From Escherichia phage PJNS034: a stretch of 64,000 nt of DNA. The translations under genes and the position numbers were made by a program. The DNA is taken from sequence record PP391266.1. One strand, given 5' to 3'. This document shows, one piece after another, positions 4,423 through 49,520 of the stretch (position 1 is the stretch's first letter; each line of letters starts with the position of its first letter). The notes beneath the pieces are model-generated. The model was not told the origin of the DNA, searched no databases, and saw nothing but the letters and a program-made list of their open reading frames with translations.

Positions 4423-4500
4423 CTTGATGTAGCTCAGTTTGGTAGCAGCACTTGCTTTGGGAGCAAGGGGTCGAAGGTTCGAATCCTTCCATCAAGACCA
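4423..4500 (+). tRNA. tRNA-Pro (anticodon TGG), CCA encoded
   Basis: Hand-folded cloverleaf: acceptor cttgatg/catcaag, anticodon stem cttgc/gcaag with loop tttggga, T-arm gaagg-ttcgaat-ccttc; D-stem only 3 bp. Confidence 0.7.
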
Positions 4501-4501
4501 A

Positions 4502-4583
4502 GTGGGATTGGCTGAGTGGTCGAAAGCACCTGACTGTAAATCAGGCATATCACGCGGTGGTTCGAATCCATCATCCCACACCA
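4502..4583 (+). tRNA. tRNA-Tyr (anticodon GTA), CCA encoded
   Basis: Acceptor gtgggat/atcccac, anticodon stem cctga/tcagg with loop ctgtaaa, extended variable region, T-arm ggtgg-ttcgaat-ccatc. Confidence 0.65.
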
Positions 4584-4585
4584 AA

Positions 4586-4662
4586 GCGTCACTAACTCAA
4601 TTGGTTAGAGTAGCGGTCTTTTAAACCGCAGGTTCTGAGTTCGAGTCTCAGGTGGCGTACCA
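4586..4662 (+). tRNA. tRNA-Lys (anticodon TTT), CCA encoded
   Basis: Acceptor gcgtcac/gtggcgt (two G-U pairs), D-arm actc...gagt, anticodon stem gcggt/accgc with loop cttttaa, T-arm ctgag-ttcgagt-ctcag. Confidence 0.8.
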
Positions 4663-4664
4663 AA

Positions 4665-4754
4665 GGAAGTTAGGGCTTTGTGGAAAGCAATCGGTCTTGA
4701 AAACCGACCCACTGTAGCGATATGGTGATGGTTCGACTCCATTAGCTTCCTCCA
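4665..4754 (+). tRNA. tRNA-Ser (anticodon TGA), type II, CCA encoded
   Basis: Acceptor ggaagtt/agcttcc, anticodon stem tcggt/accga with loop cttgaaa, long variable arm, T-loop ttcgact. Confidence 0.75.
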
Positions 4755-4756
4755 AT

Positions 4757-4833
4757 TGTTTCGTAGCTCAGTTGGTAAGAGCGTTCGGCTGATAACCGAA
4801 AGGTCACAAGTTCGAGTCTTGTCGAAACAACCA
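4757..4833 (+). tRNA. tRNA-Ile (anticodon GAT), CCA encoded
   Basis: Canonical cloverleaf: acceptor tgtttcg/cgaaaca, D-arm gctc-agttggtaa-gagc, anticodon stem ttcgg/ccgaa with loop ctgataa, T-arm acaag-ttcgagt-cttgt. Confidence 0.85.
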
Positions 4834-4836
4834 AAT

Positions 4837-4925
4837 GACGGGTTGGCAGAGTTGGTTTATTGCAGCAGCTTGCTAAGTTGCCGAGTCGAAAGGCTCCGTG
4901 GGTTCGAATCCCACACCCGACGCCA
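4837..4925 (+). tRNA. tRNA-Ser (anticodon GCT), type II, CCA encoded
   Basis: Anticodon stem gcagc/gttgc with loop ttgctaa, 16-nt variable arm, T-arm gtggg-ttcgaat-cccac; acceptor has one A-A mismatch as read. Confidence 0.6.
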
Positions 4926-4926
4926 A

Positions 4927-5002
4927 GGACGATAAGCACATGTGGATGTGCGGCAGGCTGTTAACCTGATGGCAGTTGGTTCGAATCCAACATCGTCCGC
5001 CA
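4927..5002 (+). tRNA. tRNA-Asn (anticodon GTT), CCA encoded
   Basis: Acceptor ggacgat/atcgtcc, D-arm gcac...gtgc, anticodon loop ctgttaa, T-arm gttgg-ttcgaat-ccaac. Confidence 0.75.
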
Positions 5003-5004
5003 AT

Positions 5005-5079
5005 AGCGAGATAGTTCAGTGGTAGAATATCGGTTTCATACGCCGACCGTCGATGGTTCGATTCCATCTCTCGCTACCA
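5005..5079 (+). tRNA. tRNA with CAT anticodon (elongator Met or Ile2 type), CCA encoded
   Basis: Acceptor agcgaga/tctcgct fully paired at 1:72 (not initiator-like), anticodon stem tcggt/gccga with loop ttcatac, T-arm gatgg-ttcgatt-ccatc. Confidence 0.75.
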
Positions 5080-5095
5080 AACCTCTTTATCCGAT

Positions 5096-5167
5096 GGGAG
5101 TGTCCTTCTGGGAAGGATGTGGATTCCAACCCCACTAAGTAGAGTTCGATTCTTTACACTCCCGCCA
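5096..5167 (+). tRNA. tRNA-like, possibly tRNA-Gly (anticodon TCC), CCA encoded
   Basis: Acceptor gggagtg/cactccc and T-arm tagag-ttcgatt-cttta fold well; D-loop very short and one mismatch in the anticodon stem. Confidence 0.45.
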
Positions 5168-5174
5168 AATCCCT

Positions 5175-5251
5175 AGCCTTGTAGTGTAGTCTGGTTAGCA
5201 CACGTGACTTTGACTCACGGAGCTTAGGTTCGAATCCTGACAGGGCTGCCA
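5175..5251 (+). tRNA. tRNA-Gln (anticodon TTG), CCA encoded
   Basis: Acceptor agccttg/cagggct, D-arm gtgt...gcac, anticodon stem cgtga/tcacg with loop ctttgac, T-arm ttagg-ttcgaat-cctga. Confidence 0.8.
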
Positions 5252-12271: not shown

Positions 12272-12308
12272 AAGCCCCAAGGGATTTCTCCCAAGGGGCT
12301 TTTCTTTT
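12272..12308. terminator. bidirectional terminator between convergent gene blocks
   Basis: Palindromic agcccc-aaggga-tttc-tccc-aa-ggggct with T-runs on both strands, exactly where plus- and minus-strand gene blocks meet. Confidence 0.55.
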
Positions 12309-15300
12309 ACGCCATTCCTGCCACAGAACCACCGAGATTCATGTACTCTGCAAGGTTAGTGCCGTAAGCATCAGTTGCTCGTAAGTTACGAGACTGGAGA
12401 GCTTTCTTAACAGCACCATGACCAAGCAAGTGAGCAGAAGCTCGGATGCCTTCCATAGTTACCGGAACACCATCAATAGTCTGACCGATGTACTGGTCAA
12501 GACCCATGTTTTTGGTACGACGGTCTAACATCTTATTCCAATCTTCAAAAGCCTTTTCCTGTGCTTCTGGAGAGTTCAGGAACTCCTCTTTCGAGTTAAC
12601 CCCATACTTACCAGTCCAGTTAGACTTCTCGTTCAGAATAGATTTCTGACCACGACCAACACGACCTTGTGACTTGATAATACCTAAGTCAACAAGAGCA
12701 GGCCATCCAAATTGGTACTTACCGACATAACCGAGAGTGTTCTCGATATCGTACTTACCACCGGATTCACGCTGGCCTAACACGTCACCATATGCACTCA
12801 TCATACCTCCTGCATAAGCGCTACCAGCAAACATAGAAGTCAGACCAATTGCACTCAAACCTAATTTCTTAGCCAGTGCATTAGCTGATTTCTCGTTACG
12901 GGCATAACGAACGATAGTTTCTTTATCAGGGTCAACCATCGCATACTCATAGCCTTTATCAAAGGCTACCTCTGGTGAATCAACACCTTCTGCCAGTTCG
13001 TATGGGTTTACCACTTTGATTTCTGGGTCAGATTCCAGTGCTTTACCATCCAGAGCTTCTGCTGCGGTGTCTACAACTTGCTTAACCTGTTCGGTTGGCA
13101 TGTCTTGCATAGCATCGAGCATATTCTCTACTGGTGCTTCTGGAGTAGGAGTCGGTTCAGGTTGTGGTTCAGTTACCACTGGTTCTTCACGTACTGGAGC
13201 AGCAAAGTCTTCCTCAGCCATAACTACTGGCTTCTGTACTGGTTCATCCATCATCGCCTTAGCAATTGGGGATTCATCAGCACGTAAGGCTTGTTTGTAG
13301 TCTTCCAGACTGTTGTAAACCTTCGGAGCACGTTCTGGGTCATACAGGCCGTAAGCAGATGCGATTGCTCGCTGGTTAGCTGGCCCCATATAGTTGGTAG
13401 TCTCACCTTTCCCGAACACTGCTTTAATCTGGTTACGCATGTCCATAGTGTACAGGCCGTTAGCCCCATTCACCATTTTATCGTAGCCTTTAGAGCGACG
13501 GTATTCGATAGCACCAAGTACATCACCCATCGTCTTCGCCTGAGTCATTACGTCAGTAACAGATTCAGAAGCCTTACCTGCGTTGATTGCTTTCTTACCG
13601 AAGTTCTGAATTTGTTTCAGCATCGCATTGGATGCAGTAGCAATGTCAGCTTTCAGGGAATCAGCAATTGCAGCCACTTCTTCTGGAGTGTTACGGGCAA
13701 TGATTTCATCCAACGATGCACGAGTCTGTGCAGCCGTTTCTTCCAGTGACTTAACTTGCTCTTTCAGTGCCTTGATTGGAGCATCCAGTTGAGTTGCTTT
13801 CTTCTCAAGAATTTCCAGCTTACGTTCGTGTGCTTCTTTGCGTTTCTGCTCAGCAGCTTGTTCACGTTTCTGTTTGTCTTGGAGAGCCTTCTCTTCCTTC
13901 GCCTGTTTATCACGGAGAGCTTTGTCAGCAGCTTCTTGCTTATCGTGCATCTTCTGATATTCAGCAGCCAGTTTACGTTGTTCACGTTCCCAAGCCATAT
14001 CAGCTTTCTCACGAGCAGCTTCGTCTTTCGCTTGAGCTTTCGCTTCATCACGTTTAACACGAGCAGCATCTAACAGTTCTTTCTCACGGGCTTTGAAAGC
14101 AGCAATTTCCTCAGCATGTGAATCACGCTGTAAACGTTCTTCTGCACGTTGAGTTTCTTTCAGACGTTTCTGTTCAGCACTTGCTTGTTCTTTCTTCAGA
14201 CGGTCGCCACGTTGTAACAGCTTGTTAGCAGTTGCACGAAGTTCTTTCTGAGTCAGTGGAGCAGTAGAGCCGAAGGTCTGTGCTTCAACAACTTGTAATG
14301 CTTGTTCTTTCGGAATGCCAAGTGAATCAGCAAAGTCCATCAGGTTTTCATGCTGAGCATAAATCTGATTAACTGCATCATCTTCAGCTTTACGGGCTAC
14401 AGTCTCTTCTGGAGTCTCAGCACCTTTAGCCAGAGCATCACGCTCACGTTGCATTGCCTTAATCAGTGAAGCCTTCTCACTATTCGTAAGCTGACGCATA
14501 GAGCCAGTTACAGGGTCAATGTAAGGTGAAGTCAGGTCGTCCATTACGAACTGGTCAAGGCCGTACTTACTTGCCAAACCGGAAATATGTTCGTTCTGGG
14601 TTGTGATGTTTTTAGCTGCTTCATCACGGATACCTGCTTTAACTTCCTCTGCCTCTGTCTTAGCTTTCTCAGCCTGTGCATTACGAGCTTCCTCACGAGC
14701 ACGTTGAGCCAATTCAGTAATCTCACCAGCATCACGGATGTTAGCGATTTGGTCTTCCGGTACACCTGCACGACGAGCACGTTCTTCCAATGCTTGACGT
14801 TCAACTTGTGCTGCACGGTTACGAATGGTTTCAGTTTCACGAATAGCTGCACCCAATACTGCATCCAGACCACGAGGTGCTGGAGCATTTGGAGCAGGAG
14901 CCGCTGGAGTAGGTTCACCAGTTGCCAGTGCTTGCAGGTCAGATGGGTCACGAACTACAGGGGCAGGTTCTGGAACAACAGTAGGCTCTACAACCGTTGG
15001 TTCAGGAGTACGAGCGTATTCCATTGAAGCCAGAGATTGTAATGCTGCTTGTTCTTCTGCACGACTAATGAATCGAGCAGCCTGTTCAGAGTTAACTTCC
15101 GCAATCTGAGCATCAGACCAACCTTTGTTACGAAGCACTTCTGCCTGTACAGGAGAAACACCACCATCAGGTGCTGGCTGAGTCATTTCTGGAGTAACAA
15201 CTGGTTCAGGAGTTACAGTCTGTTCTGGAGCTACAGGTGGTACATCTGGAGTCGGCTCTGGAGCAACATCTGCTGGTGGCGGAGTTGGTTCTTCTGGAGC

Positions 15301-17139
15301 ACGAGCAGCCATAACACGGTTCTGAGCATCTGAGTCACGAGCGATTGCACGTAAGCCTTCGAAGTCCTGAGCCATACGAGCACGAGCTTTACCTTCACGA
15401 GAACGAGCGATGATACCCGGTAATTCAGTTGCACCGAAGGTTTTCAGAGCTACTACTGGCTTAGCCACTTTACCGATTGTCGCTGGTTGTGAAGCATAAT
15501 CTTCAATACCGTAACGATAAGCAGGGTCTTGGTTTGCCAACATCTTATCTTTGTAGATAAAGGATGCAGCATTCATTGCTGGGTTAAAACCTTTGTCACC
15601 AACAGTGAAACCATAGGTATCAAGTTGACGAGAGAGGTTTTCAGCACGTTGACCAATTGCATCGTAAATCAGTGAACGGTCAGAAGCGGTATCACGCATT
15701 GCTTTCACAATAGCGTTTGCATCGTTCATCATGTTACGCAGATTACGTTGCTGAGATATAGAAGCAGCAGGGTCAATCTCACCCATATCTTGACGCAGTT
15801 TCAGTTCCTGAATTGAATCATTCAACTGGTTAACTACATCTTCGAAAGCTGATACGTCTTGTGCTTGTGCTTTCTTACCATTACGACGGGCAGTAGCCAA
15901 TTCTTCTGGAGAGAACACGCGAGAACCGAAGTCCAAGTCACCAAGTGCTGATGCACCTGAAATCTTACGACGACGAGCAGCAGAGCGAATGTCACCTTCA
16001 GTCAGACCCATCATAGCTGCGGCAGAGCCGTAATCATCAGACAGTTCAGACAAGCCACGTTTCACACCAATGTCACGCATTGCTTCTGGAGAAATATCAA
16101 CACCAGCATCTTTCAAATCACCAAACGCTTTATAGAAAGCAGATGGGCCGATGTTTTCATTTACCTGAGCACGTTCCGTTACCAGTGCTTCACGCTGTTC
16201 TGGAGTAAGGTCTTTACCTACGAGGCTATTCAGTTCTTCATCACGGTGAAGGTTACGCATAGCTTCAACTTGGTCACGTTCAGTCAGGGCTGGATTACCA
16301 CCTGCTTCACGGATGTTACGGTCATTACGACCTGCAAAGCTACGAACTGCTGGAGCAATTTCCATTGGGGCACGAATACCACCAGAAACCAGACCACCAG
16401 TTACTGCATAATCCAACAGGTTTTGTGGGTCAACAGCAAGTTCCTGACGACGACCCATTTCGTATGCTGCACCAGAAGCGCCTGCACCGATTGCACCAGT
16501 TGCTACGGTTTCCGCCATTCGTCCAAGAGCAGTTTTACCGACAGTTGCAAAAGGCTTCCCATAGGGAATAAGCCCTAGAGCGGCTGCGGCAGTACCAGCA
16601 GTACGAGCGATATCCGTGTTACCAGCACCCTCTTGTTCAGCGTAGATAGAACCAGTGGTAGGGCCATATGAAGTAGCACCGAATGCTAAGTCACCAGCCA
16701 TTGTTGGTAAGCCAGATGCAGTTTGTTCTGCAACAAACGTACCCAAGTCACCTAAACCACGAATGTCACGCCAGTTTTCCACGGCATAACGTTGGTTCTT
16801 CTCACCATGCTCACGTAACTTACGGGCAAGTTCACGGTCATGATAAGACTGTTTAGTAACTTCACCTTCTTGCGTCTGACCAGCTTTCTGAGCCAAATCA
16901 GCCTGACGTGCTGCTGCTGCACCAAACAAACCTGATGCCAGTTCAGTACGTCCACGAGTAAACGCATTAGAGATGTTACCGAAGAATCCACGGTCTTCTG
17001 TTGGAGCTTCTTGTACAGGCAGGGGAGCCTGAGAGATGTTTTGTTCCTGAGCCATTGGGACATTGCCCGTAGGTTGTGGAGAGCCACCGCTTCCACTTTC
17101 CAATTGACGCAGTAATTCTGGGTCTGTAATTGGAGTCAT
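12307..17139 (-). CDS. large virion protein (1610 aa) with C-terminal lytic transglycosylase-like domain; internal ejection protein or tape-measure-like
   Basis: Gly/Ala-rich N-terminal third, Pro-rich linker (PEPTPDVPPVAPEQTVTPEP), long K/E/A coiled-coil, C-terminal QRESGGKY...GKYQFG resembling an SLT catalytic Glu-Ser segment. Confidence 0.55.
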   Translation of the reverse strand: MTPITDPELLRQLESGSGGSPQPTGNVPMAQEQNISQAPLPVQEAPTEDRGFFGNISNAFTRGRTELASGLFGAAAARQADLAQKAGQTQEGEVTKQSYHDRELARKLREHGEKNQRYAVENWRDIRGLGDLGTFVAEQTASGLPTMAGDLAFGATSYGPTTGSIYAEQEGAGNTDIARTAGTAAAALGLIPYGKPFATVGKTALGRMAETVATGAIGAGASGAAYEMGRRQELAVDPQNLLDYAVTGGLVSGGIRAPMEIAPAVRSFAGRNDRNIREAGGNPALTERDQVEAMRNLHRDEELNSLVGKDLTPEQREALVTERAQVNENIGPSAFYKAFGDLKDAGVDISPEAMRDIGVKRGLSELSDDYGSAAAMMGLTEGDIRSAARRRKISGASALGDLDFGSRVFSPEELATARRNGKKAQAQDVSAFEDVVNQLNDSIQELKLRQDMGEIDPAASISQQRNLRNMMNDANAIVKAMRDTASDRSLIYDAIGQRAENLSRQLDTYGFTVGDKGFNPAMNAASFIYKDKMLANQDPAYRYGIEDYASQPATIGKVAKPVVALKTFGATELPGIIARSREGKARARMAQDFEGLRAIARDSDAQNRVMAARAPEEPTPPPADVAPEPTPDVPPVAPEQTVTPEPVVTPEMTQPAPDGGVSPVQAEVLRNKGWSDAQIAEVNSEQAARFISRAEEQAALQSLASMEYARTPEPTVVEPTVVPEPAPVVRDPSDLQALATGEPTPAAPAPNAPAPRGLDAVLGAAIRETETIRNRAAQVERQALEERARRAGVPEDQIANIRDAGEITELAQRAREEARNAQAEKAKTEAEEVKAGIRDEAAKNITTQNEHISGLASKYGLDQFVMDDLTSPYIDPVTGSMRQLTNSEKASLIKAMQRERDALAKGAETPEETVARKAEDDAVNQIYAQHENLMDFADSLGIPKEQALQVVEAQTFGSTAPLTQKELRATANKLLQRGDRLKKEQASAEQKRLKETQRAEERLQRDSHAEEIAAFKAREKELLDAARVKRDEAKAQAKDEAAREKADMAWEREQRKLAAEYQKMHDKQEAADKALRDKQAKEEKALQDKQKREQAAEQKRKEAHERKLEILEKKATQLDAPIKALKEQVKSLEETAAQTRASLDEIIARNTPEEVAAIADSLKADIATASNAMLKQIQNFGKKAINAGKASESVTDVMTQAKTMGDVLGAIEYRRSKGYDKMVNGANGLYTMDMRNQIKAVFGKGETTNYMGPANQRAIASAYGLYDPERAPKVYNSLEDYKQALRADESPIAKAMMDEPVQKPVVMAEEDFAAPVREEPVVTEPQPEPTPTPEAPVENMLDAMQDMPTEQVKQVVDTAAEALDGKALESDPEIKVVNPYELAEGVDSPEVAFDKGYEYAMVDPDKETIVRYARNEKSANALAKKLGLSAIGLTSMFAGSAYAGGMMSAYGDVLGQRESGGKYDIENTLGYVGKYQFGWPALVDLGIIKSQGRVGRGQKSILNEKSNWTGKYGVNSKEEFLNSPEAQEKAFEDWNKMLDRRTKNMGLDQYIGQTIDGVPVTMEGIRASAHLLGHGAVKKALQSRNLRATDAYGTNLAEYMNLGGSVAGMA

Positions 17140-17200
17140 TTAAAGTCCTCACTCGTTAGGTCGTTTTAGAGAGTTTATTGGGTAATTATACACCGTACTC

Positions 17201-17229
17201 TACAAATAAGAAAGCCCTCCGAAGAGGGC
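17201..17229 (-). terminator. Rho-independent terminator (minus strand) after 17236..18729
   Basis: Stem gccctc/gagggc, UUCG loop on the minus-sense RNA, followed by U-rich tract. Confidence 0.5.
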
Positions 17230-17235
17230 AGTATA

Positions 17236-18729
17236 TTATTTACGATGCGTTGGGTCGCCACCAACAAGGTCAGAAACTTTGTACCAGTTTCCATCTTCCA
17301 GTTTAACAGCACCTGCACCACGGTTGTAATCACGCACTTTACCAGCGTAACCAGCCATTTCCTGAACGACTTTCTCACCTTGGTTATCAGACATGTTACC
17401 AGACTGAGCAAGGTTATACAGACTCTGAACAGTCATGTCACGTAACCACTGTTTCTGTCGGATAGATTGCTGAGTATCACCACGACGAGGGAAGTAGATG
17501 TGACCGTAGTTCTTCCATTCAGCCAAGCCGATAGCAGAACCAGATTCAGGACGCAGAACACCAGCCAGATAACCCATTTCGTTATCACGAGCTTTGATGA
17601 TTTCTGGATACACCGCTTTGAGAGCCGCAGGAATCATTCCCGGTTTCCAGTCAGAGACTTCATCCATGTACATCGCTGGAAGCGTTGCAAGTGGGTAGTC
17701 TTTAACATCCTGAGCAACATCACCATAGCTTTCCATCCAACGGTTCTGAGAAGCCAGAGCACGGTCAGCACCGAACTGAGCTTTCGCTTGTTGTTCAGTT
17801 AAACCTTTCGCACCTTTAGCCTGAGCAGCAGCCAGCTTGTCTTGAGCCATTTGCAGCTTAGTAGCTGATGGAATTTCAGGAAGAACACCTTCGTGAACGT
17901 AGTTATTAATCTCCGCAGAGTTATAACCTTTGCCATAAAGTTCTTTGGCATCTTGTTCACGTTGACGCATACCTTCTGTACCAGCCCAAGCAGCACCAGC
18001 GGCAGCAAGAGCAAATGGAATACCTGCACCAGTAGCAATGAACCCACCAAAGGTTGCCAGAGTAGCAAGGCTAGATACCAGTTTGGCACCGAAACTTTCA
18101 CGCTGTACATCGGCATCTTTCCCGGTCAGTACACCCTCTTTTCCCGGAGCTTGTTGAGCCTTTTGTGCTTCTGCCATCTTAGCGTTAGCTAAATCTTTAG
18201 CAAATGCAGTTGAGTCTGCAACAGTCTGAGCAGCAGGGTCGTCTACAGCGGCACGTTCAGCATTAGCCTGAGCGGTACGAGTAGGGTCAGTCGGGGTCAG
18301 AGGCTTAGCACCAATTGGTGATGGAGTACCAACCTCAGCTTCTGCTGCTTCGAGAACACCTTTAGGTGCAATTCGAGTTGCAACACCACGCTGTAAATCA
18401 GTCAACCAGTCACCTGAGCCACTCTCACCATACTGCTTATTCAGATAGGCTTGTTCATCCGCTGGCATACCACCTTGTGCCTTGACAGCCATTTGCCCTT
18501 CTGGAGTAGCCAGTTGAGCTTGAGCAGCAGGAGATAACTTCCCACCACCAGTAGCAATCATCAATTTACGTTGACGTGCTTCTTCATCCTCACGAGCTTT
18601 CTTCTGCTTCTGCATTTCGAGGACAGTAGGGTCAGTAGAACGCTTCTCGTACTTCAATCCCGTTTCAGGGTCAGTTGGACTCCAATCAGGCATCCAACCT
18701 TTAATTGTATCGAGTACACCGCCAGCCAT
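17236..18729 (-). CDS. virion-module protein (497 aa), function unknown
   Basis: Ala/Gln-rich protein with hydrophobic Gly-rich segment (LATLATFGGFIATGAGIPFALAAAGAAWAG), between the 1610-aa protein and tail fibre genes. Confidence 0.4.
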   Translation of the reverse strand: MAGGVLDTIKGWMPDWSPTDPETGLKYEKRSTDPTVLEMQKQKKAREDEEARQRKLMIATGGGKLSPAAQAQLATPEGQMAVKAQGGMPADEQAYLNKQYGESGSGDWLTDLQRGVATRIAPKGVLEAAEAEVGTPSPIGAKPLTPTDPTRTAQANAERAAVDDPAAQTVADSTAFAKDLANAKMAEAQKAQQAPGKEGVLTGKDADVQRESFGAKLVSSLATLATFGGFIATGAGIPFALAAAGAAWAGTEGMRQREQDAKELYGKGYNSAEINNYVHEGVLPEIPSATKLQMAQDKLAAAQAKGAKGLTEQQAKAQFGADRALASQNRWMESYGDVAQDVKDYPLATLPAMYMDEVSDWKPGMIPAALKAVYPEIIKARDNEMGYLAGVLRPESGSAIGLAEWKNYGHIYFPRRGDTQQSIRQKQWLRDMTVQSLYNLAQSGNMSDNQGEKVVQEMAGYAGKVRDYNRGAGAVKLEDGNWYKVSDLVGGDPTHRK

Positions 18730-19055
18730 TACTGTAACTCCCGTGCAATGAACAACTGAACTTGACGTTTGGCTTCGTCAGGAGAAATGTTCGGGTTAGT
18801 CTCACGAAGACCTTCTGCGAATTGCTGAACCTTCTGCATAGCGTTCTGTAAATCAGGGTCGCTATTCATATAGTTCTCAAACTGAGAAGCCTTCTCTTGG
18901 GTATCAACGTGTCGGGATAAGGCACTTGGAGGTTCCATCATCCCTTCCATACCAGATACATTGGGACGGGAAGTTTGATAACCTGCGTTGCCTGAAGTGA
19001 TTTGTTGTTGACGAACACTTGCATTACCACGAATGCGGTCATAAATATCTGGCAT
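18729..19055 (-). CDS. hypothetical protein (108 aa)
   Basis: ORF-track ORF in virion module; stop overlaps next start. Confidence 0.3.
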   Translation of the reverse strand: MPDIYDRIRGNASVRQQQITSGNAGYQTSRPNVSGMEGMMEPPSALSRHVDTQEKASQFENYMNSDPDLQNAMQKVQQFAEGLRETNPNISPDEAKRQVQLFIARELQ

Positions 19056-19196: not shown

Positions 19197-20213
19197 TTAC
19201 TTAAATGAACCTGTAGCACCCATAGAGGTATTCGAGGTAGAGCCAGAGGTTTTGCCAGAGCCAGTGGTGGTTTTGTCCATCAGTGGGTTCATCTTATTCA
19301 GAATATCCATGATAGTGTTAATATCCGTCACACCTGCATCTTTCAACTGCTGACCGACTTGGTTCATGTAGCCAGTGTCCAGTTCCTTCTGACCTTGTTG
19401 CTGCTGGAGATTACCAGACAGTAACTGGTTGAGGATAGACTGCTGACCTGCACCACTGATACGGTCAAGCTGGCCTAACGCCGAAGTACCACCTGAGATG
19501 GAGCCTAACAGACCTTGCAGACGGTTTTGAACGTTCTGCTGGTTCATGTTCTGAGAGATACCAAGACCTTGCTGATACATCTGAGAAGTCAAGTCAGCTT
19601 TCTGCTGGTTCGCTTGGTTCAAGATGTTTTGAGCAACATTGGAACTCTGCTCCATAGCTCCACGAGCAGCCACACCTTGAGCGATAGCAGAACGACTAGA
19701 GCCAACGTTGCCTTCGCCAACACCCTGACGGTAGATTGAGGGCATTGTGTTTTCTTGGAGGTTACGCTGGATAAGGCGGTTTGCTTGCTCAACTGAGCTT
19801 TGTGCAGACTGGTCGATTGCATCAGTTTGGTTCTTGAGAAAGTCACTGTTGACCATATCAAGAGCGCCCTGAGTCAGCTTACCAGTGGTCTGGTCAAAAG
19901 CACCTTCACCCATTTGGTTCAGGCTATCAACTGTACCCCACAGCTTATCAATACCGCCCTGAGTTTGGTCAAGAACAGATTGTAAGTGACCTGACTGATT
20001 GAGACGTTGAAGCGCAGCAAGCTGTTCTTCATTCATGCTCTCAATCTGTTTCTCAGTATAGCCTTGTTCTTTTAGCTTGTTATAGACACCATTGGCATCA
20101 CCTTTAATGGCATCAATGACGTCTTTTGGCAAGCCGGTTTGAGAAGTAGAAGTCGAAGACGACTTGCTGCTGCTCTTACCTTTACTCTTACCGAAACTTA
20201 ATCCGAAACCCAT
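19197..20213 (-). CDS. virion-module protein (338 aa), Ser/Gln/Asn-rich
   Basis: ORF-track ORF; start overlaps tail fibre stop; low-complexity S/T-rich C-terminus. Confidence 0.35.
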   Translation of the reverse strand: MGFGLSFGKSKGKSSSKSSSTSTSQTGLPKDVIDAIKGDANGVYNKLKEQGYTEKQIESMNEEQLAALQRLNQSGHLQSVLDQTQGGIDKLWGTVDSLNQMGEGAFDQTTGKLTQGALDMVNSDFLKNQTDAIDQSAQSSVEQANRLIQRNLQENTMPSIYRQGVGEGNVGSSRSAIAQGVAARGAMEQSSNVAQNILNQANQQKADLTSQMYQQGLGISQNMNQQNVQNRLQGLLGSISGGTSALGQLDRISGAGQQSILNQLLSGNLQQQQGQKELDTGYMNQVGQQLKDAGVTDINTIMDILNKMNPLMDKTTTGSGKTSGSTSNTSMGATGSFK

Positions 20214-22483
20214 TATGGAGTCTCCTCGTTGTTGATAGGAGGAGCCTCCGTAGAGACTCCATTCATCTTGTCATTATACAACGCATCCAGCTTCATCTCA
20301 AGCACTTGGACTCGTTCGTCAATCAGCCCCTTCACATTACTCTGTAACAGCTCTAAGGTCGTCCTGAGTGTCTCATTGTCGGCTTTGAGTTGTCGGTTCT
20401 GAGCAGAAAGTTCCTTGATAGCCTCGATGTGCAAAGCATGTAGCTGGTTGTAATCTACAGTGTAATAGTCCTCTTCATCCTCTTCGTCATTTGGATTGTT
20501 CCCAACGAAGACGGCATTGTCATATACTCCAAGCAATTCCTGAGCAATAACGCCTGCACTTGGTACATCGGAACCGTTATACATGAACGTATAACCATTC
20601 AGCTTCTCTACAGTTTCCAAGGCATTATCAACCTTTGTAACACTGTGTTTGAGACGTTCATCCGAGGCATTAACAACCTGACCAGTAATCTGACCATTCA
20701 CAGATAACTTAGATTGGTTATTTGCCAGACCTGTATTACGCTCCAGATACATGCCGTAGGGAAGACCTTCCCAACCCCATTCCAGAACAGTCTCACGAGC
20801 ACCAGAGCCCCACAAACGAAGGTTAGCCTCACGACCAGCACCATTAATACGTTTCCAGTATTGAGTAGAGTTGTAGTAAGTTGCACCATTCAAATGCGTA
20901 GGACAACCAAAAGAGGTAGCACCGTCGGTCATATTGATAGTGATAGGACGATGCCCTGTCCAGCCTCCCCAGCCGCCATCTGTATGAGATAACAGGAAGT
21001 ACATGTTTGCACCATCCTGACGGAATATGAAACCTTTGTTACCGTAGACAGCTCGGAATGAGTCAGCATGGGTCGAAGCTACACCGTAATACACAAACTT
21101 GTTAGGGTCGAAGTAACCTTTAACTGCACTGTTTGACCAGAGGTTTACTGCACCATCTGCTCGGAAGCCAAAACCTGAGTCATTATCGCCAATAGCTAAC
21201 TGTAAGGTGTTGTTAGCTTTGCTCTCAAGTTGGATTCGATTCCCAACATTCACAATGTCCTTGATGTTTGCATTACCTGAAGATGTAATGCTACGGTTGC
21301 AGATGTAACTATCTGTAGAAGTCTTCAGGTCAACTAACAAGTTGGCATTGGTTGGAGTTGTTACAGGGCCGACAGGAAATACAGCAGCATTAGGGGCAGT
21401 TCCCAACGATACTTGAGCTTTATGCAGAATTGGTGGAGTCTGAGACTCAATGTGGTATACATTATCTCCACGGACATAAACTACAAAACCGTAAAAATCC
21501 CTGCTACCAGCGAAAATGCCACCAAGTGTACGTTCATTATAATCGTAGACTGACAAAACACCGGAAACTACTTGAGGTGTATCAGACCAACCAGATGCTT
21601 GTACAAAACCAATAAATGAGTTCTGGTTGAAGGGGTCAGTACCGCCACGAGCTGTAGATTTGATACTCAGTCGAGTAGAGTTCCAAGTTTGGTCAAGGTT
21701 AAACTGGATTGGATAGAACCAGTCTTTATTCAATCCACGGGTATCAATTACATACCGTTTACCAATGTCCTGAGAAGCAGCATTCAATTCATCAAGAGAA
21801 GGTTTACGGCCTGTATGGTACACATCTTGGTCACTGTAAGTAAGGCGCCCATCATCTTTTAGTTGAAGGTACTTATTGGTTGCACCATTCTTCAGATAAA
21901 TGTCACCAGAACCAACGCCAAGGTCAAGAACTTTATTACCAGTTAGTTGTAGGTTCCCACCCTTCGGGATGTACTTACTGTCAGATTCACCTTTGGTATA
22001 AACACTAATCTTAGCCGCATATCCATTATCTGACTGAGCTTTAGTGTAGTATCGACCATCAGCTTCTGCTTTTGAATAGTATTGTTTGAGAGCTACCTGT
22101 ACTCGTGATTCTAGGTCTTGAATCCCTTCCGCTTGCTTGTTGAAATATGCAATAGCTGCTGAGATACGTTTAGCAAAGTCAGCAATTGTTTCATTCAGTG
22201 TGTTGATAATTGCATACTCCGTATCAGTCACACTGTCTTTGTTGAAAGCGGTACGAAGTTCAATCTCTGTGTTGGAGTTGACAGTCTTAATCTCTGCCAT
22301 CATGACATTATCGTCAGCAATAGAAATCAACACCAAGTCACCCGGAGTGATTCCCATCTTATCATCAGCCCACAAGGTATTTTTACCAGTGATTAAGGCT
22401 GAACCTGCCTTGTACGTTACCGTACCAGTTTTATACCACATACTACCTCCGAGGGAAGAAAGGCTCCAGAAGGAGCCAGTCAA
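20213..22483 (-). CDS. tail fibre/spike with C-terminal intramolecular chaperone (peptidase S74-like) domain
   Basis: C-terminal segment SDERLK...LNGYTFMYNG...GVIAQEL matches the self-cleaving chaperone module of endosialidase and T5 L-shaped fibre as recalled. Confidence 0.7.
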   Translation of the reverse strand: MTGSFWSLSSLGGSMWYKTGTVTYKAGSALITGKNTLWADDKMGITPGDLVLISIADDNVMMAEIKTVNSNTEIELRTAFNKDSVTDTEYAIINTLNETIADFAKRISAAIAYFNKQAEGIQDLESRVQVALKQYYSKAEADGRYYTKAQSDNGYAAKISVYTKGESDSKYIPKGGNLQLTGNKVLDLGVGSGDIYLKNGATNKYLQLKDDGRLTYSDQDVYHTGRKPSLDELNAASQDIGKRYVIDTRGLNKDWFYPIQFNLDQTWNSTRLSIKSTARGGTDPFNQNSFIGFVQASGWSDTPQVVSGVLSVYDYNERTLGGIFAGSRDFYGFVVYVRGDNVYHIESQTPPILHKAQVSLGTAPNAAVFPVGPVTTPTNANLLVDLKTSTDSYICNRSITSSGNANIKDIVNVGNRIQLESKANNTLQLAIGDNDSGFGFRADGAVNLWSNSAVKGYFDPNKFVYYGVASTHADSFRAVYGNKGFIFRQDGANMYFLLSHTDGGWGGWTGHRPITINMTDGATSFGCPTHLNGATYYNSTQYWKRINGAGREANLRLWGSGARETVLEWGWEGLPYGMYLERNTGLANNQSKLSVNGQITGQVVNASDERLKHSVTKVDNALETVEKLNGYTFMYNGSDVPSAGVIAQELLGVYDNAVFVGNNPNDEEDEEDYYTVDYNQLHALHIEAIKELSAQNRQLKADNETLRTTLELLQSNVKGLIDERVQVLEMKLDALYNDKMNGVSTEAPPINNEETP

Positions 22484-28599: not shown

Positions 28600-31467
28600 T
28601 TACTTGTTCGTTTTGTCAGGTTTGATAGTCAGGTCGTACATGTCGTCGCCGACGTTCATCTGTTTCGTCAACAGATACAAGGCCATTCCTCGGAGAATCT
28701 CACCAGACCAGAAACCGAAGAACATACCGTTGTCAGTGCCCAGACGTACTGCTGGACTCCAAGAACCATTCATGATTTGGTCAGGTACACCAGTGTTAAT
28801 GAAGTTGTTTTCCAACTCAGTCACACAAGTTTCAATGAGGAAATCAAGACCTTCAACCTTACTACCAGCCAGCTTAGCGAAACAAGAACCTGCTAACCAC
28901 AGACCACACATGTGACCAGTGAAGTCATTCGGGTCAGGCTTAGGAAGGCTTTCTGGTGGGAAGTCAGTTGGAGTGATACCACCACTGTCCTTCACGAACT
29001 GTACAAGCCATTTAATCCAGTTCTCGGAATAATCTTTGAGCTTCTGAGGGATGGGCTTGCCTTGCAGCATAAGCTCATACCAAGCTCGACATGCACCCAT
29101 CATAGCACGAGGTTGGTATCCAGACCAAGCAGTTCCATCACCCCAATGGTACATTGTCCACGTATCAGGTTTACCATATTTCAGGTTATCCCAACGGTTC
29201 CAGATGTAAGCACTCATGCCCGGCCCAACGACACCAAATTTCTTCGTGTATGCAACCTGAGAGTCCCACAACATGTTAACCATCTGTGTCATGTGTCCCG
29301 CCCACTCGTTTGGAGTCTGGTCAATGGTGTAGATGAATGGATACTGATATCCCGGATAAGGCATACCACGCCAACCATCGAACTGAGCAGTATCAGGAAC
29401 AGAGATGTTCGAGAATGGAATAGTTCCCGGTGTGTACGCCAAGTTATTCTCTTTGAAGTCAACAATCGTACAGTCACCAACCTTAGCTACGAAGTCTTTC
29501 TGACCACTAATAGTTAAGGAGAATAGGAGAGTGTAAGTATCATTGGTAGTGAATCGACGAGGCAGTTCGTTTACAGAGTACCACTGGAAATAGCAATCCT
29601 TCTCGGTGTCCAGAATCACAGCAACAACTTGTTTCAGCTTGGTGTAATTAGGACGAGAAGGACGAGGAGGTGGAACCCAACCCGGAGGCTTGCCTTCTGG
29701 GTCTTCATTTGGCTGATACTCATTCAGAATCAAAGAAGAGCGAGGTAATGATTTATTTACCCACTTATCTTTTGTATCCTGCATCACCCAATGCCAACGC
29801 CAACCATCATCATCGACAACACGAAGCTCGAATGAGTTGTTAGTCTTGAACGACATTGCTGTTACATCCAGCGCTTCATCATCTAGAAGCCAGAAGCCGA
29901 TAATCAAGCCATCACTGAATTTAGACATATCCACTCGGTTAGTCAAGGCAGAGCGAGTATCAACAACATTGTTCTCATACACCATGTCTGATTTGGCATC
30001 ACCATAGACTACCACAGAACGAGAATCTGACAGGACGAATGATGAACCATCTGCTTTAGTTGCTTCAACCAAGCCAGAGAACGGAATATCAAAAGTATTA
30101 ACTGCACTCGTCTTTGAAACAGGGAAAGGGGCAGCCCAACGAGTTGAACCCGGAGCATCTGAATCTTTAACTGAGTTTAAGCGTAATACAGCACGAGCCT
30201 CTAATGCACTACCATCTGATGCAACACCACCGTATTGAACACGCAGTTTGGAGTTCTGACCAGCACGGAACCAAATAGCCTGTTGCTCAATCGTAACCTG
30301 AGCACCAGTTGGCTCTTTAATTTGGATGTTGATATAACCTTCTTCATCACGAGTGTAGATGGGTTCTACTTCAGATGGGTAGGTGTAATCGTAGGAGATG
30401 CCATCAGTGAATGGGGTATTATCGTTGACTGACTTACGGAAGAATTTATCTTTGCTGTCAATCTCTGAATAAGCACGACATGTTTCAAGGGCACATTGCC
30501 AACCCATCCAATACTTATCTTCGCCAGTAACACGCCACATCAGGTAACAAGCATCCGCCCACCATAACTCAGCATCCGCAGCATTACCAAGATAGTCAGG
30601 AGGTACAGGAACGTTCAAGGGGCGGTTGTGCCAAGGTTGGTTACGTTCGATATACTCACCACCAAACTCGATAGGTTGACGGTTAGCGAAGTTAGTTTTG
30701 TGTTCACCATTCACAGTGGTGTCTTGAAGTTTAATCAGACCTTTCTGGTCTTCAGGTAAACCTTCCTCAATTACATCACCATCCCAATTGATTTTCTTCC
30801 CTTCCCAATTGACAATCCAATCCACTGGATAAACAACACCGTCGTGATTCCAGTCAGTTGAACCATCTTCATTGATAGCCTGTACACTTGCGTTGATTGC
30901 ATCCCAAGCAAGAGCACCATCAAATGCGAAGGTAGCTTTATCAAGGAACTGACCGAAGTATTTATCATCGTGTGGAATCTGAGTGATACCATTATTGTAG
31001 AACATCATCTCACCCTTAAAACCTGAGTGAGTTGGAGCCTTACGGTCAATAGGCCAGTTAGCAAGGATAGGCTCCTTACCATTCACAATCCAGTTACAAA
31101 TGAACGGTTGTGGTGAGGTCGGCATCTTCTGACCCCAATAGAAGAAGTTGAAGTAAGCATCCCAACACCACTTCGCTTTCTCCAACCAAACTTCATCACG
31201 AGTTGCAATGTACATGTACACATAACCCATCACCTGAAGAGACTGACCTTCCGTGGTCGCGTCTCCATTAGGCTGTGCTTCCATCTGTGATGCAGCAATG
31301 AAGTGACGGTTGTTTGCAAGTACGCCATCAGGGTTAAACACAAAGTGGTCTACCTGAGCGTCATTAGTCAGGCCAGTGTTACGGTCGAGAAAGTATTGGT
31401 GGCCTTTAGCCATTTGCAATACACCTGCCGTATCACTAATGTTCTCGAAGCACAGCGATTTAATCAT
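28600..31467 (-). CDS. large virion protein (955 aa), tail/tailspike-like
   Basis: ORF-track ORF in structural block, aromatic-rich; no motif recognised. Confidence 0.4.
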   Translation of the reverse strand: MIKSLCFENISDTAGVLQMAKGHQYFLDRNTGLTNDAQVDHFVFNPDGVLANNRHFIAASQMEAQPNGDATTEGQSLQVMGYVYMYIATRDEVWLEKAKWCWDAYFNFFYWGQKMPTSPQPFICNWIVNGKEPILANWPIDRKAPTHSGFKGEMMFYNNGITQIPHDDKYFGQFLDKATFAFDGALAWDAINASVQAINEDGSTDWNHDGVVYPVDWIVNWEGKKINWDGDVIEEGLPEDQKGLIKLQDTTVNGEHKTNFANRQPIEFGGEYIERNQPWHNRPLNVPVPPDYLGNAADAELWWADACYLMWRVTGEDKYWMGWQCALETCRAYSEIDSKDKFFRKSVNDNTPFTDGISYDYTYPSEVEPIYTRDEEGYINIQIKEPTGAQVTIEQQAIWFRAGQNSKLRVQYGGVASDGSALEARAVLRLNSVKDSDAPGSTRWAAPFPVSKTSAVNTFDIPFSGLVEATKADGSSFVLSDSRSVVVYGDAKSDMVYENNVVDTRSALTNRVDMSKFSDGLIIGFWLLDDEALDVTAMSFKTNNSFELRVVDDDGWRWHWVMQDTKDKWVNKSLPRSSLILNEYQPNEDPEGKPPGWVPPPRPSRPNYTKLKQVVAVILDTEKDCYFQWYSVNELPRRFTTNDTYTLLFSLTISGQKDFVAKVGDCTIVDFKENNLAYTPGTIPFSNISVPDTAQFDGWRGMPYPGYQYPFIYTIDQTPNEWAGHMTQMVNMLWDSQVAYTKKFGVVGPGMSAYIWNRWDNLKYGKPDTWTMYHWGDGTAWSGYQPRAMMGACRAWYELMLQGKPIPQKLKDYSENWIKWLVQFVKDSGGITPTDFPPESLPKPDPNDFTGHMCGLWLAGSCFAKLAGSKVEGLDFLIETCVTELENNFINTGVPDQIMNGSWSPAVRLGTDNGMFFGFWSGEILRGMALYLLTKQMNVGDDMYDLTIKPDKTNK

Positions 31468-33816: not shown

Positions 33817-34278
33817 CTACATTACCGCTTCAAGGTCTTCCGCAGGGATTACATTCACTCGGCTACCACCAGTAGGGCCGGTAGTCCACTCGCTACCATC
33901 AACGGTAACTTTAAAACCAATACGACCACCGCCACCCGCTGTAACACCAGTTAGGTCACAAGACTTACCATCAGCAGATTGTTTGAAAGTGAAGCTTCCT
34001 TCTTGCCCAGAGTCATAAGTAGCGAACCACTCATACACAGCAGAATCAGGAAGAGTACCACCAGAAATAACCACTTTGTCAGTTTTAGTCTCACCTACTT
34101 TGAGGTCTTGACCAATACCATCAGTATCAATTGAAATGTCTAACACTTCAACTTCGATTGAATCTTTCTTAGTTGCATCACTCACAGACTCTACAGTAAT
34201 AGTGCTGGTGCCCTTATCGACACCAGTCACTTCAAGAGCCTGAGTAGCGAGAGCAGCTTTAGCTTGACGCTTCGCCAT
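33817..34278 (-). CDS. Ig-like domain protein (153 aa), possible capsid decoration
   Basis: Ig-like beta-rich sequence (GTSTITVESVSD...KVTVDGSEW); own ATG with AAGAGGA upstream. Confidence 0.45.
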   Translation of the reverse strand: MAKRQAKAALATQALEVTGVDKGTSTITVESVSDATKKDSIEVEVLDISIDTDGIGQDLKVGETKTDKVVISGGTLPDSAVYEWFATYDSGQEGSFTFKQSADGKSCDLTGVTAGGGGRIGFKVTVDGSEWTTGPTGGSRVNVIPAEDLEAVM

Positions 34279-34290
34279 TCACGATTCCTC

Positions 34291-34692
34291 TTATGCTACA
34301 GTTGCAGCAGCAGGGTCGCTAGAGGTTGCTTTAATTTCCTGAGGAGCACCATCTGGAGAGACAGTTACTGACAGAGGAAGTTTAGCACCCTTCTTAACGT
34401 ACCGCTTTTTTGCACCGGCTATTGCCACACTTTCTACGGCTGGTTGTTCGTCGTTGACTACCACAGTTGCTGCATTGGTAGGAGTAGTACCAACTTTGTT
34501 AGTAAACTCGGCTACATACGAACCTGCATCTTCTTTCTGAGCATTAGCTTTGGTGAAAGATGGAGAGGTTGCACCTTCGATTGCAGCCCCATCCTTTTTC
34601 CACTGCACGGAGTCAAAGTTCTCCGCAGCAGCAGTTAAGGTAAAACTACCGCCAACAACGACGGTAGCATTACTTGGATGGGTTAGGATTTT
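34291..34692 (-). CDS. Ig-like C-terminal extension of major capsid protein reached by predicted -1 frameshift
   Basis: Frame -1 relative to capsid ORF stays open from the slippery site and encodes [27 protein letters not shown]...VTVSPDGA. Confidence 0.5.
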
Positions 34693-35588
34693 GGGGCAGT
34701 ATCTCCACCCGCTTTAGCAGTAATCATAGCCGCTGCTTTAGGGTTGTTCAGACGCAGACCAACTTCCTGCTCAATCATGAACTTCTCAGCAGAACCAGAT
34801 TTCGCCAGAGCTACTTTCTTAGGAGCACGCAGTACAGCCATACCGAGGTCAGATGGGTTGAAGATGTAGATAACATCTTTCGGCATCCAACGGTTAGGAA
34901 TGCACTTCAGTTCCTGGCCCAGCGGGTCAACGATGTACTCAACCTGCTTAACAAAGCGTTTGTCGTTCTCGAAGATACGCATACGAGTACCAGACTTCTC
35001 TTGCAGTGAAGCGAAGAAGTCAGCTTTGCTTGGGTGGTACATGATGATGCTTGGGTCAGCACCTTCGGTGTACAGCAGAGCAGTAGTTTCGAACAGCAGT
35101 TCTTCTTTCAGCTCGCCAGTTTTCTTCATGGTTGCATCAATCATCGTACCGAAAGAAGCAGTCAGACGAGCAGTACCAGCAGCACCCGGAGTTGCTTTCT
35201 GGTCAGCCAACAGGAAGATACCTTCGTTGTCACGCTTCAGCTCTTTAGCAGCTTTCTTCAGTTGATAGAACAGCTCTTTCTCACGACCATGAGAACTAAC
35301 GGCGTTAGCAGAGTCAGATACGAACACAACTTTACGCATAATCTGAGTGTAGTTCTGAACCACAGTGGTTGGGGTCAGGTCTACGTCTTCAGCATCAGAT
35401 GCTTCAGCGAATGCGTTGCCGGTGTTGATATCACTCAGCTTATCCCACTGCCACTGGAACATAGTGTTGTGAACAGGGAATTTGCGAATCATGGAAATCA
35501 GCGGAGTGTATTCAGGAGAGATGTTGCTGACCCAATCAGCAAAGTCTTCCTTGATGCCAGCCATCTTGTAAGTCTGGTAAGTTGCCAT
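34683..35588 (-). CDS. major capsid protein
   Basis: Follows scaffold in terminase-portal-scaffold-capsid order; [13 protein letters not shown] resembles T7 gp10 LTAGGAGTAREGT as recalled. Confidence 0.65.
34689..34695 (-). other. candidate -1 programmed frameshift slippery heptamer CCCAAAA
   Basis: X_XXY_YYZ heptamer two codons before capsid stop; hairpin ctaccg...cggtag ~21 nt downstream. Confidence 0.5.
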
Positions 35589-49070: not shown

Positions 49071-49520
49071 ATGAGTGTTGCAGCAACAGCAGCATTTCTG
49101 TGTATGACGTTAGTTATTCACGAAGAAGCACGAGGCGAGCCTATCGCTGTGAAATACGAGGTAGGCCACGTGGTGAAGAATCGGATGGATTCACGCCAGT
49201 ATCCAGATACATGCGAGGCGGTTGTACTGCAACCCAAACAGTTCTCGTGGACAAAAACAAAAGGTGTACAAGATGAGTACGATTTGCGACAACGTTATTA
49301 TCGCGTCCTTGACTCGCTCGACACTCCCCAAAAGCGACTTTCGTTTGCTGCTTCTCAAAGAGCGGCAGATGAAGTGCTCAGTGGTAAGCATAAATCTCGA
49401 ATCGGAGCTGCGCTCCACTTCGTTACTCGCGGTCACTCAACTCATTGGGCGTCCAAATTTAAACGCCATACTATAGCAGGTATGGATTTCCTACTCCCAA
49501 GGAAGAAGAAAAATGCTTAA
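49071..49520 (+). CDS. SleB-like cell-wall hydrolase (endolysin candidate)
   Basis: HEEARGEP matches the conserved EARGE segment of the SleB/Hydrolase_2 family as recalled. Confidence 0.55.
   Translation: MSVAATAAFLCMTLVIHEEARGEPIAVKYEVGHVVKNRMDSRQYPDTCEAVVLQPKQFSWTKTKGVQDEYDLRQRYYRVLDSLDTPQKRLSFAASQRAADEVLSGKHKSRIGAALHFVTRGHSTHWASKFKRHTIAGMDFLLPRKKKNA

Follow-up and report, generated by a model that had tools for sequence, protein, structure and literature searches.

A giant candidate ejection protein carrying a C-terminal lysozyme-like domain in Escherichia phage PJNS034

The 64,000-nucleotide (nt) stretch of Escherichia phage PJNS034 analyzed here as a whole (record PP391266.1; hereafter, the window) carries a giant gene at positions 12307 to 17139 of its minus strand, whose product the PJNS034 record (100% identical) labels "hypothetical protein." PJNS034 is a 65.7-kb phage and an unclassified member of Caudoviricetes. 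We propose, with a probability of roughly 0.8, that the product of this open reading frame (ORF) is an internal (ejection or "pilot") protein, the largest such protein of a short-tailed phage that belongs structurally to the phiEco32/SU10/7-11 lineage. By analogy, we infer for the 1610-amino-acid (aa) protein a location in the virion and a muralytic activity. A first-pass annotation of the same letters had described the 1610-aa ORF as a virion protein ending in a peptidoglycan-cleaving domain; the ORF itself is sound, with an ATG start and 1610 codons, and the start is kept in all of the eight homologues compared.

RESULTS

Probable remote homology to SU10 gp24

Profile comparisons suggest that residues 6 to 1295 of the protein are remotely homologous to a CHARACTERISED protein, SU10 gp24, by way of the giant proteins of Grimontviridae, i.e., Cronobacter phage A24 gp085 (1306 aa), Proteus phage P59 gp039 (1529 aa), and that of Salmonella phage PKM.Hi.22.6 (1336 aa), which are annotated "hypothetical" or "virion-associated protein" and are functionally uncharacterised. 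Only profile-profile comparison connected the family of the 1610-aa protein with the giants of SU10, A24, and P59. With hhalign, the full-length family aligned with the Grimontviridae giants over residues 6 to 1295 (E-value, 1.1e-16; probability, 98.8%; 1138 colinear columns) and its N-terminus over 485 colinear columns (E-value, 1.7e-10), and the Grimontviridae giants aligned with SU10 gp24 (E-values of 2e-9 to 5e-9; probability, 96%); reversed and block-shuffled controls gave E-values of at least 0.059. For the comparison of the N-terminus, the controls were at 0.085 or above.

SU10 gp24 (163 kDa) had the highest peptide yield of all proteins in virion proteomics (PMC4281155), and SU10 gp20 to gp24 are missing from genome-release intermediates (PMC9509320), gp20 to gp23 being the remaining ejection proteins beside gp24. 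Like the PJNS034 protein, gp24 of the Kuravirus phages SU10/phiEco32 (1473 aa) is a giant with a Gly/Ala-rich N-terminus and a GFNP motif region around residue 500; its gene likewise closes the late operon, following that of a ~500- to 550-aa protein, and the capsid, adaptor, nozzle, and needle genes nearby are homologous to those of the window. In tblastn searches, the SU10 adaptor gp11, gp16, nozzle gp17, and needle gp18 all mapped onto window ORFs, and the major capsid protein shows 42 to 49% identity to those of Kuravirus and Grimontviridae podoviruses and ~28% to that of Bruynoghevirus.

Gene order tells a similar story. A late operon ending with a ~550-aa protein and then a giant of 1306 to 2701 aa is found in SU10, A24, P59, PKM.Hi.22.6, and metagenomic relatives. 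Synteny with Grimontviridae is identical, including the convergent genes for an endonuclease, PnuC, a deoxyribosyltransferase, a ligase, and an exonuclease; these plus-strand genes, together with that of the DNA polymerase, form a convergent set whose content and order are shared with Cronobacter phage A24 and Proteus phage P59. Within its own operon, the giant protein is the largest of a small/medium/large ejection-protein cassette lying downstream of the tail genes, and the ORF order of 338, 108, 497, and 1610 aa parallels T7 gp14-15-16 and Pa223 gp56-55-54-53. The members of this cassette are as follows:

19197..20213, minus strand: 338-aa ORF, candidate DNA ejection protein (PHROG 4287 "DNA ejection protein," E-value of 2.4e-24)
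18729..19055, minus strand: 108-aa ORF between the ejection-protein candidates, with Pa223 gp55 as positional parallel
17236..18729, minus strand: 497-aa ORF directly upstream of the giant gene, on size and position alone a candidate for an ejection protein of the periplasmic-tunnel type
12307..17139, minus strand: complete gene of the 1610-aa giant ejection-protein candidate, last gene of the late structural operon

The 338-aa ORF has 28% identity to SU10 gp21 (E-value, 2e-8) and also matches A24 gp089. In position and size class, the 497-aa ORF parallels SU10 gp23 (551 aa), A24 gp086 (553 aa), and Pa223 gp54 (505 aa). The 108-aa ORF had no family match in the profile scan of late-module ORFs.

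Modular organization of the 1610-aa protein

Boundaries between the parts of the protein were drawn from an alignment of nine family members obtained in the first homologue search and from a module scan of eight members, three of which came from a later exhaustive search. From the N- to the C-terminus, the parts are as follows:

Residues 1 to 300: N1, Gly/Ala-rich (alignment and composition)
Residues 300 to 600: N2, helical domain (alignment)
15340..17139, minus strand: conserved N-terminal region, residues 1 to 600
14830..15339, minus strand: variable Pro/Ala/Val/Glu-rich linker region, residues 601 to 770, differing in length and sequence among homologues
14248..14829, minus strand: M1, conserved helical module, residues 771 to 964 (module hidden Markov model found in all full-length members)
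13780..14247, minus strand: charged Lys/Glu/Ala/Arg/Gln-rich helix, residues 965 to 1120, with large length differences among homologues
13246..13779, minus strand: M2, conserved, residues 1121 to 1298, with the invariant motif GANGLYT...FG.G.TTNY.G.AN.R
13018..13245, minus strand: variable Pro/Glu/Val-rich linker, residues 1299 to 1374, where the C-terminal add-on starts
12865..13017, minus strand: small beta-beta-alpha-beta domain, residues 1375 to 1425, family conserved (AlphaFold2 local confidence score [pLDDT] of ~78)
12802..12864, minus strand: signal-peptide-like segment KK-LGLSAIGLTSMFAGSAYA-GG, residues 1426 to 1446
12310..12801, minus strand: lysozyme-like/lytic-transglycosylase-fold domain, residues 1447 to 1610, with the putative catalytic Glu1458 at 12766-12768

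The Gly/Ala-rich N-terminal region and the proline-rich linker of the first-pass annotation are both present. Residues 1 to 300 contain 12 to 17% Ala and 11 to 14% Gly; two Pro-rich stretches lie within residues 601 to 770 (28 to 33% Pro at 601 to 660 and 25% at 721 to 760), and a third linker covers residues ~1300 to 1370. In the AlphaFold2 model, residues 1 to 260, Gly/Ala-rich with weakly hydrophobic helices, have pLDDT scores of 30 to 45, and residues 262 to 545 form a confidently predicted all-alpha domain (73 to 92) that holds the GFNP...NQDP motif. Structural matches to this N-terminal model were generic helical bundles only. M1 falls inside the colinear hhalign match to the Grimontviridae giants.

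The ~300-aa Lys/Glu/Ala coiled-coil noted at first is real as a tract, but its core is only ~155 aa long (residues 965 to 1120) and the coiled-coil label is doubtful. This core is 42 to 55% charged and 10 to 15% hydrophobic, contains neither Pro nor Gly, and is surrounded by a Pro/Gly-poor, presumably helical zone at residues ~760 to 1200. By its composition, an ER/K-type single helix appears to be a better fit than a canonical coiled coil because 10 to 15% hydrophobic residues are too few for a heptad coiled coil.

Since the Grimontviridae giants stop ~47 residues past the M2 motif (the hhalign alignment of A24 gp085 reaches residue 1259 of 1306), residues 1300 to 1610 of the PJNS034 protein are an add-on. 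Unlike it, the Grimontviridae giants are without the C-terminal linker, the small domain, the signal-like segment, and the lysozyme-like module.

A C-terminal lysozyme-like domain

The SLT-like segment that had been noticed at the C-terminus held up. Residues 1447 to 1610 match PHROG 27932, "baseplate hub subunit and tail lysozyme," with an E-value of 2.8e-20. Pfam gave sub-threshold matches only for the whole 1610-aa protein, among them PF06737 (Transglycosylas; 16 to 19 bits versus a cut-off of 27). In the domain alignment, PF06737 was matched by 7 of the 10 members (best E-value, 5e-4), and PF01464 (SLT) was matched weakly by one stand-alone homologue (E-value, 0.016). The AlphaFold2 model of residues 1375 to 1610 has pLDDT scores of 81 to 96 across its core, and Foldseek on the C-terminal domain model returned lysozyme-like/lytic-transglycosylase families with weak E-values. 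As modelled, residues 1447 to 1610 have a lysozyme-like/lytic-transglycosylase alpha fold.

Among 15 sequences, Glu1458 of the QRESGG motif is invariant and Ser1459 nearly so, and the G and Q of a G-x-x-Q motif (GKYQ) are invariant. The QRESGG motif aligns with the E-S motif (QRESSG) of the SU10 gp20 SLT domain, and Glu1458 lies in helix 72-85 of the 1375-1610 model. From motifs and model, we infer that the domain probably cuts peptidoglycan, either as a lytic transglycosylase or as a hydrolytic muramidase.

The domain is kept even in P0023, the most divergent family member, and it extends well beyond this family. In the N4-like phage pYD6-A, it occupies residues ~28 to 168 of the virion RNA polymerase (42% identity; E-value, 3e-24). 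It is also present in T4-like rhizobiophages, on baseplate hubs resembling gp5, in a cluster of conjugative tra genes (TraG, TraU, TraP, DsbC), where it is fused to DUF3262 (L011 7001-7963), and as small secreted bacterial stand-alone homologues, one of which adjoins a YceG/MltG gene (L012 1839-2465). The pYD6-A polymerase gene lies at L005 11920-21714, and no Schitoviridae record other than that of pYD6-A was matched by the lysozyme-like domain. These settings are ones of local peptidoglycan opening for envelope-crossing machines or of wall remodelling.

Elsewhere in the window, a 149-aa ORF (49071-49520, plus strand) matches the endolysin PHROG 938 (E-value, 4.5e-15) and is likely the phage lysis enzyme, distinct from the virion-borne domain. 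This separate candidate endolysin argues against the C-terminal domain as the lysis enzyme, and we rejected the possibility that the domain is the phage's own endolysin.

The hydrophobic segment preceding the lysozyme-like domain

Segment 1426-1446 is the most hydrophobic 19-mer in all five family members scored, with an apparent insertion free energy of +2.5 to +4.9 kcal/mol across the family. A comparable range (+3.0 to +5.3 kcal/mol) was obtained for the N-terminal signal peptides of P0015, P0017, and P0018, which are stand-alone homologues, and the true transmembrane helices of P0012 gave, for comparison, -2.0 and -0.3. In the 1610-aa protein itself, the best 19-mer reaches +4.5 kcal/mol, i.e., signal-peptide grade, and the Gly/Ala-rich N-terminal segments +8 to +10. 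Moreover, the segment aligns at the position of the signal peptides of stand-alone homologues, ~12 to 14 residues before the E-S motif. We read it as a signal-peptide-like element that would have arrived, or coevolved, with the enzyme module.

A bolder hypothesis, which we consider unlikely, is that the C-terminal 310 residues are a captured secreted bacterial-type wall enzyme that retained its signal peptide, the KK-hydrophobic-AxA stretch acting after ejection as an internal signal-anchor. The ~1400-residue body would then be delivered to the membrane or cytoplasmic side with the enzyme kept in the periplasm, a topology that we likewise regard as doubtful. Such an arrangement would be the mirror image of T7 gp16, whose enzyme is N-terminal, and, if it exists, it would constitute a distinct, undescribed ejectosome architecture in which the variable-length charged helix serves as a periplasm-spanning spacer.

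A rare family of unannotated giants

A close relative, TacPo2_55 of Pantoea phage TacPo2, has 75% identity to the 1610-aa protein over its full length, and all genes of the TacPo2 genome are annotated "hypothetical." An exhaustive search of 1.84 billion cluster representatives with the family profile of the N-terminal 600 residues retrieved 8 clusters; by this count, the family is rare. Its members span 1469 to 2701 aa, with variable inserts, and are annotated "hypothetical" throughout. The most divergent of them is P0023, a protein of 2701 aa whose 111-kb contig shows the same order of genes; it retains N2, M2, and the C-terminal domain. Word-indexed homologue searches, which were restricted by low-complexity candidates, found 9 relatives with the full protein and missed the family when the C-terminus or SU10 gp24 was the query.

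In Salmonella phage SeKF_80 (Grimontviridae), the giant (L007 5842-10966) is annotated as overlapping "endolysin" and "DNA methyltransferase" genes; this two-gene annotation is possibly a frameshift or an annotation artefact. The record labels "endolysin," "DNA methyltransferase," and "DarB-like" were not reproduced by Pfam on the Grimontviridae giants.

Late operon and surrounding genes

The minus strand from 41204 down to 12307 forms a single late module of ~29 kb, arranged as follows:

Late module, minus strand, first: terminase large subunit, portal, scaffold, and major capsid protein
Late module, minus strand, second: immunoglobulin (Ig)-like proteins, then an adaptor-like protein of 221 aa
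Late module, minus strand, third: fibre and tail proteins and a nozzle-like protein of 574 aa
Late module, minus strand, fourth: two long fibre or needle-like proteins
Late module, minus strand, fifth: ORFs of 338, 108, and 497 aa, then the giant gene
17214..17229, minus strand: GC-rich hairpin (TTCG loop) plus T-run, within the 96-nt spacer before the giant gene
12275..12296, minus strand: terminator-like hairpin directly 3' of the giant-gene stop, end of the late operon

The convergent plus-strand endonuclease gene ends at 12172. On the upstream side of the giant gene, the 96-nt spacer (17140-17235, minus strand) holds the hairpin and T-run, then GGTGTATAAT, then a strong ribosome-binding site; it is 91% identical in TacPo2, compared with 75% for the giant protein, and it may combine an attenuator with a promoter of its own that keeps the copy number low. 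The TGTATAAT motif found upstream of the giant gene is not enriched in the window, where its two occurrences are at chance level; the second TGTATAAT lies at 20273-20280 (minus strand), ~60 nt upstream of where the 338-aa gene begins.

Farther away, 10 tRNA genes (Pro, Tyr, Lys, Ser, Ile, Ser, Asn, Met, Trp, and Gln) lie at 4423-5251 on the plus strand, and TacPo2 has 11 tRNA genes at the corresponding place. The DNA polymerase seems to be split into separate exonuclease and polymerase ORFs (62974-63609 and 761-2446, both on the plus strand); the window ends intervene between the two, and in TacPo2 several small genes do. In the late module, a 955-aa tail protein (28600-31467, minus strand) matches PHROG 2871 with 1331 bits and shares 42 to 49% identity with proteins that occur in jumbo phages and in myoviruses of the rV5-like and phAPEC8-like kinds, which points to a putative receptor-binding module common to different tail morphotypes. 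In the interval 33817-35588 (minus strand), two Ig-like ORFs come after the major capsid gene, and the one at 33817-34278 matches a later portion of the same PHROG 1328 capsid profile as the capsid gene. In SU10, ribosomal slippage joins the capsid protein to an Ig domain, and a capsid-Ig fusion resembling that of SU10 may exist in PJNS034.

DISCUSSION

No components of short-tailed phages are understood less well than the ejection proteins. So rapid is their evolution that they routinely stay labelled "hypothetical," which holds for PJNS034, for TacPo2, and for the majority of Grimontviridae and Kuravirus records. Our analysis provides a sequence bridge from an orphan group of Escherichia and Pantoea phages, through Grimontviridae, to the experimentally anchored SU10 gp24, together with a map of the domains of the 1610-aa protein.

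We propose a model of the working of the 1610-aa protein during DNA injection. As suggested by SU10 gp24, a few copies would be packaged in the capsid alongside the DNA. Once the phage has adsorbed and its tail needle is gone, the protein would, by homology, exit by way of the portal-nozzle channel, either ahead of the leading DNA end or along with it. Its body (residues 1 to 1295) may then help to form a trans-envelope conduit that lengthens the short tail, to which the Gly/Ala-rich, weakly hydrophobic helices, the helical modules, and the long charged helix would contribute. Finally, the module of residues 1300 to 1610, which the homologous Grimontviridae and Kuravirus giants lack, would open the peptidoglycan locally through its putative lytic-transglycosylase-type enzyme and thus let the conduit and the DNA through. 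Wall cutting, which is assigned to gp20 in SU10 and belongs to the N-terminus of gp16 in T7, would here be fused C-terminally together with the signal-peptide-like segment. The scheme is patterned on T7, where gp16 unites a transglycosylase and a channel-forming body.

Several results weigh against this proposal. Virion presence and loss upon genome release are shown for SU10 gp24, from which they are extended to the proteins of PJNS034 and its close relative TacPo2. Directly compared with SU10 gp24 by hhalign, the family N-terminus gave a marginal result (E-value, 0.0077; probability, 5%), and an HMMER family profile run against all ORFs of SU10, A24, and P59 did not match the giants. BLASTP of the 1610-aa protein with SU10 gp24 gave weak colinear matches (E-values of 5e-6 pairwise and 0.008 filtered), which lie partly in Pro-rich sequence and were not relied on. 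Direct similarity being marginal, the link to SU10 gp24 is therefore transitive via the Grimontviridae giants, and it was drawn with profiles of only 3 to 9 sequences of biased composition. No sequence similarity was detected between the 497-aa ORF and SU10 gp23, nor between the family alignment and T7 gp16 (hhalign E-value, 0.51; probability, 0.1%). As regards the enzyme, the muralytic domain stays below threshold with the curated Pfam models (PF01464 and PF06737), and PDB sequence searches with the whole protein and the C-terminal profile gave nothing relevant. Finally, no segment of the 1610-aa protein reaches transmembrane-grade hydrophobicity, and hence the sequence gives an inner-membrane role no support.

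Among the other explanations, the one that survives best is that of an ejected multieffector cargo acting mainly in the cytoplasm, in antirestriction, DNA protection, or host takeover, after the manner of P1 DarB or the N4 virion RNA polymerase. About 1300 residues are without assignable function, the family varies from 1469 to 2701 aa through its inserts, one Grimontviridae homologue is annotated as "DarB-like antirestriction" and another as "DNA methyltransferase," and the muralytic domain is also carried by an N4-like virion RNA polymerase. These annotations are, however, automatic and were not reproduced; no Pfam enzymatic domain was found in the 1610-aa protein, in four family members, in the Grimontviridae giants, or in SU10 gp24, and the conserved N2 and M2 are helical or of unassigned fold, the N-terminal model resembling generic helical bundles. 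We consider a mainly cytoplasmic cargo improbable; such a role is in any case compatible with ejection and would be additional rather than alternative.

Still less probable is a fixed external part of the virion, i.e., a tail-tip or fibre-associated lysin working from outside and neither stored in the head nor ejected. Virion lysins can indeed be tail parts, the same domain type is found in the gp5-like hubs of T4-like phages, and the place of the 1610-aa protein in the particle is itself drawn by analogy. Nevertheless, all densities of the SU10 tail correspond to portal, adaptor, nozzle, needle, and fibres, with gp24 not included, and gp24 vanishes upon genome release; moreover, the long low-complexity linkers and low-confidence Gly/Ala-rich regions suit unfolded passage through a narrow channel, and the syntenic position is that of ejection cassettes. 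We rejected this location as unlikely given the SU10 data.

A tape measure that sets the tail length of a long-tailed phage and bears a C-terminal muralytic domain can be dismissed for practical purposes on gene content and homology, and we give it hardly any chance. Some (siphovirus) tape measures are indeed large, have helical content, and carry a peptidoglycan-cleaving domain at the C-terminus, and a 960-aa protein of the adjacent region weakly matches tape-measure PHROGs (best E-value, 2.3e-8), but only as secondary matches, its best being with tail fibre PHROGs (E-value, 1e-31), and its C-terminus matches the SU10 needle. As first proposed, major tail and tail-chaperone genes are not obvious: among the 19 ORFs between the terminase and the giant gene, none has its best match in a family of tail tubes, sheaths, chaperones, or tape measures, and neither a tail terminator, a distal tail protein, nor a chaperone pair was detected in the 29-kb module. 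Furthermore, the capsid, adaptor, nozzle, and needle have homologues in SU10, a phage with a short tail solved by cryo-electron microscopy, the giant gene closes the operon beyond the genes of the fibres, and the homologous giants belong to the podoviruses of Grimontviridae and Kuravirus. Altogether, capsid, tail proteins, synteny, and the homology chain to gp24 support the early preference for a podovirus internal ejection protein over a tape measure.

As the probable largest ejection protein of such a phage, the 1610-aa protein is a variant of a well-known theme, and the general picture of podovirus DNA injection is unchanged. The architecture is nonetheless new in detail, with a putative C-terminal wall cutter on a giant ejection protein, from a family below Pfam thresholds, preceded by a signal-peptide-like segment. 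Outside Pfam thresholds as it is, this compact lysozyme-like domain of 164 residues also represents a possible enzybiotic module.

Comparison with known systems places the protein among ejection cassettes of several kinds. SU10 gp24 differs in being without a muralytic domain, a separate 260-aa protein, gp20, having an SLT domain (PF01464; E-value, 1e-23); in PJNS034, a divergent lysozyme-like domain is fused to the C-terminus of the giant, and no separate SLT-domain gene like SU10 gp20 was found among the candidate ejection ORFs upstream in the window. The cassette logic of Pa223, with small, tiny, ~500-aa, and giant proteins, is alike. Lysozyme domains are carried by the gp15-like ejection proteins phiKMV gp36 and SP6 gp36/K1E gp35, and in phiKMV gp36 the muralytic domain is C-terminal, as in the PJNS034 giant. 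In these phages, the carrier is, however, the middle-sized tunnel protein and the lysozyme families are recognised ones. The pYD6-A virion RNA polymerase (3264 aa) resembles the PJNS034 protein in bearing the domain family on a giant ejected protein and differs in that the domain is N-terminal and the remainder unrelated. T7 gp16 (1318 aa), also the largest and last of its ejection-protein cassette, joins a transglycosylase, which has one catalytic Glu, to a large channel-forming body within one protein (PMC8954989), unlike the PJNS034 giant in its N-terminal enzyme and in its sequence family. Proteins resembling gp16 are listed as 609 to 1337 aa, a range that the 1610-aa protein exceeds. The organisation of ejection proteins has been described as "mosaic," the wall-cutting domain shifting among these proteins and among positions within them (PMC8954989), of which the phiKMV, SP6, and K1E proteins are examples. 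The PJNS034 giant adds a further case of this relocation: a gene of its own in SU10, the N-terminus of gp16 in T7, the N-terminus of the polymerase in pYD6-A, and here the C-terminus of the giant.

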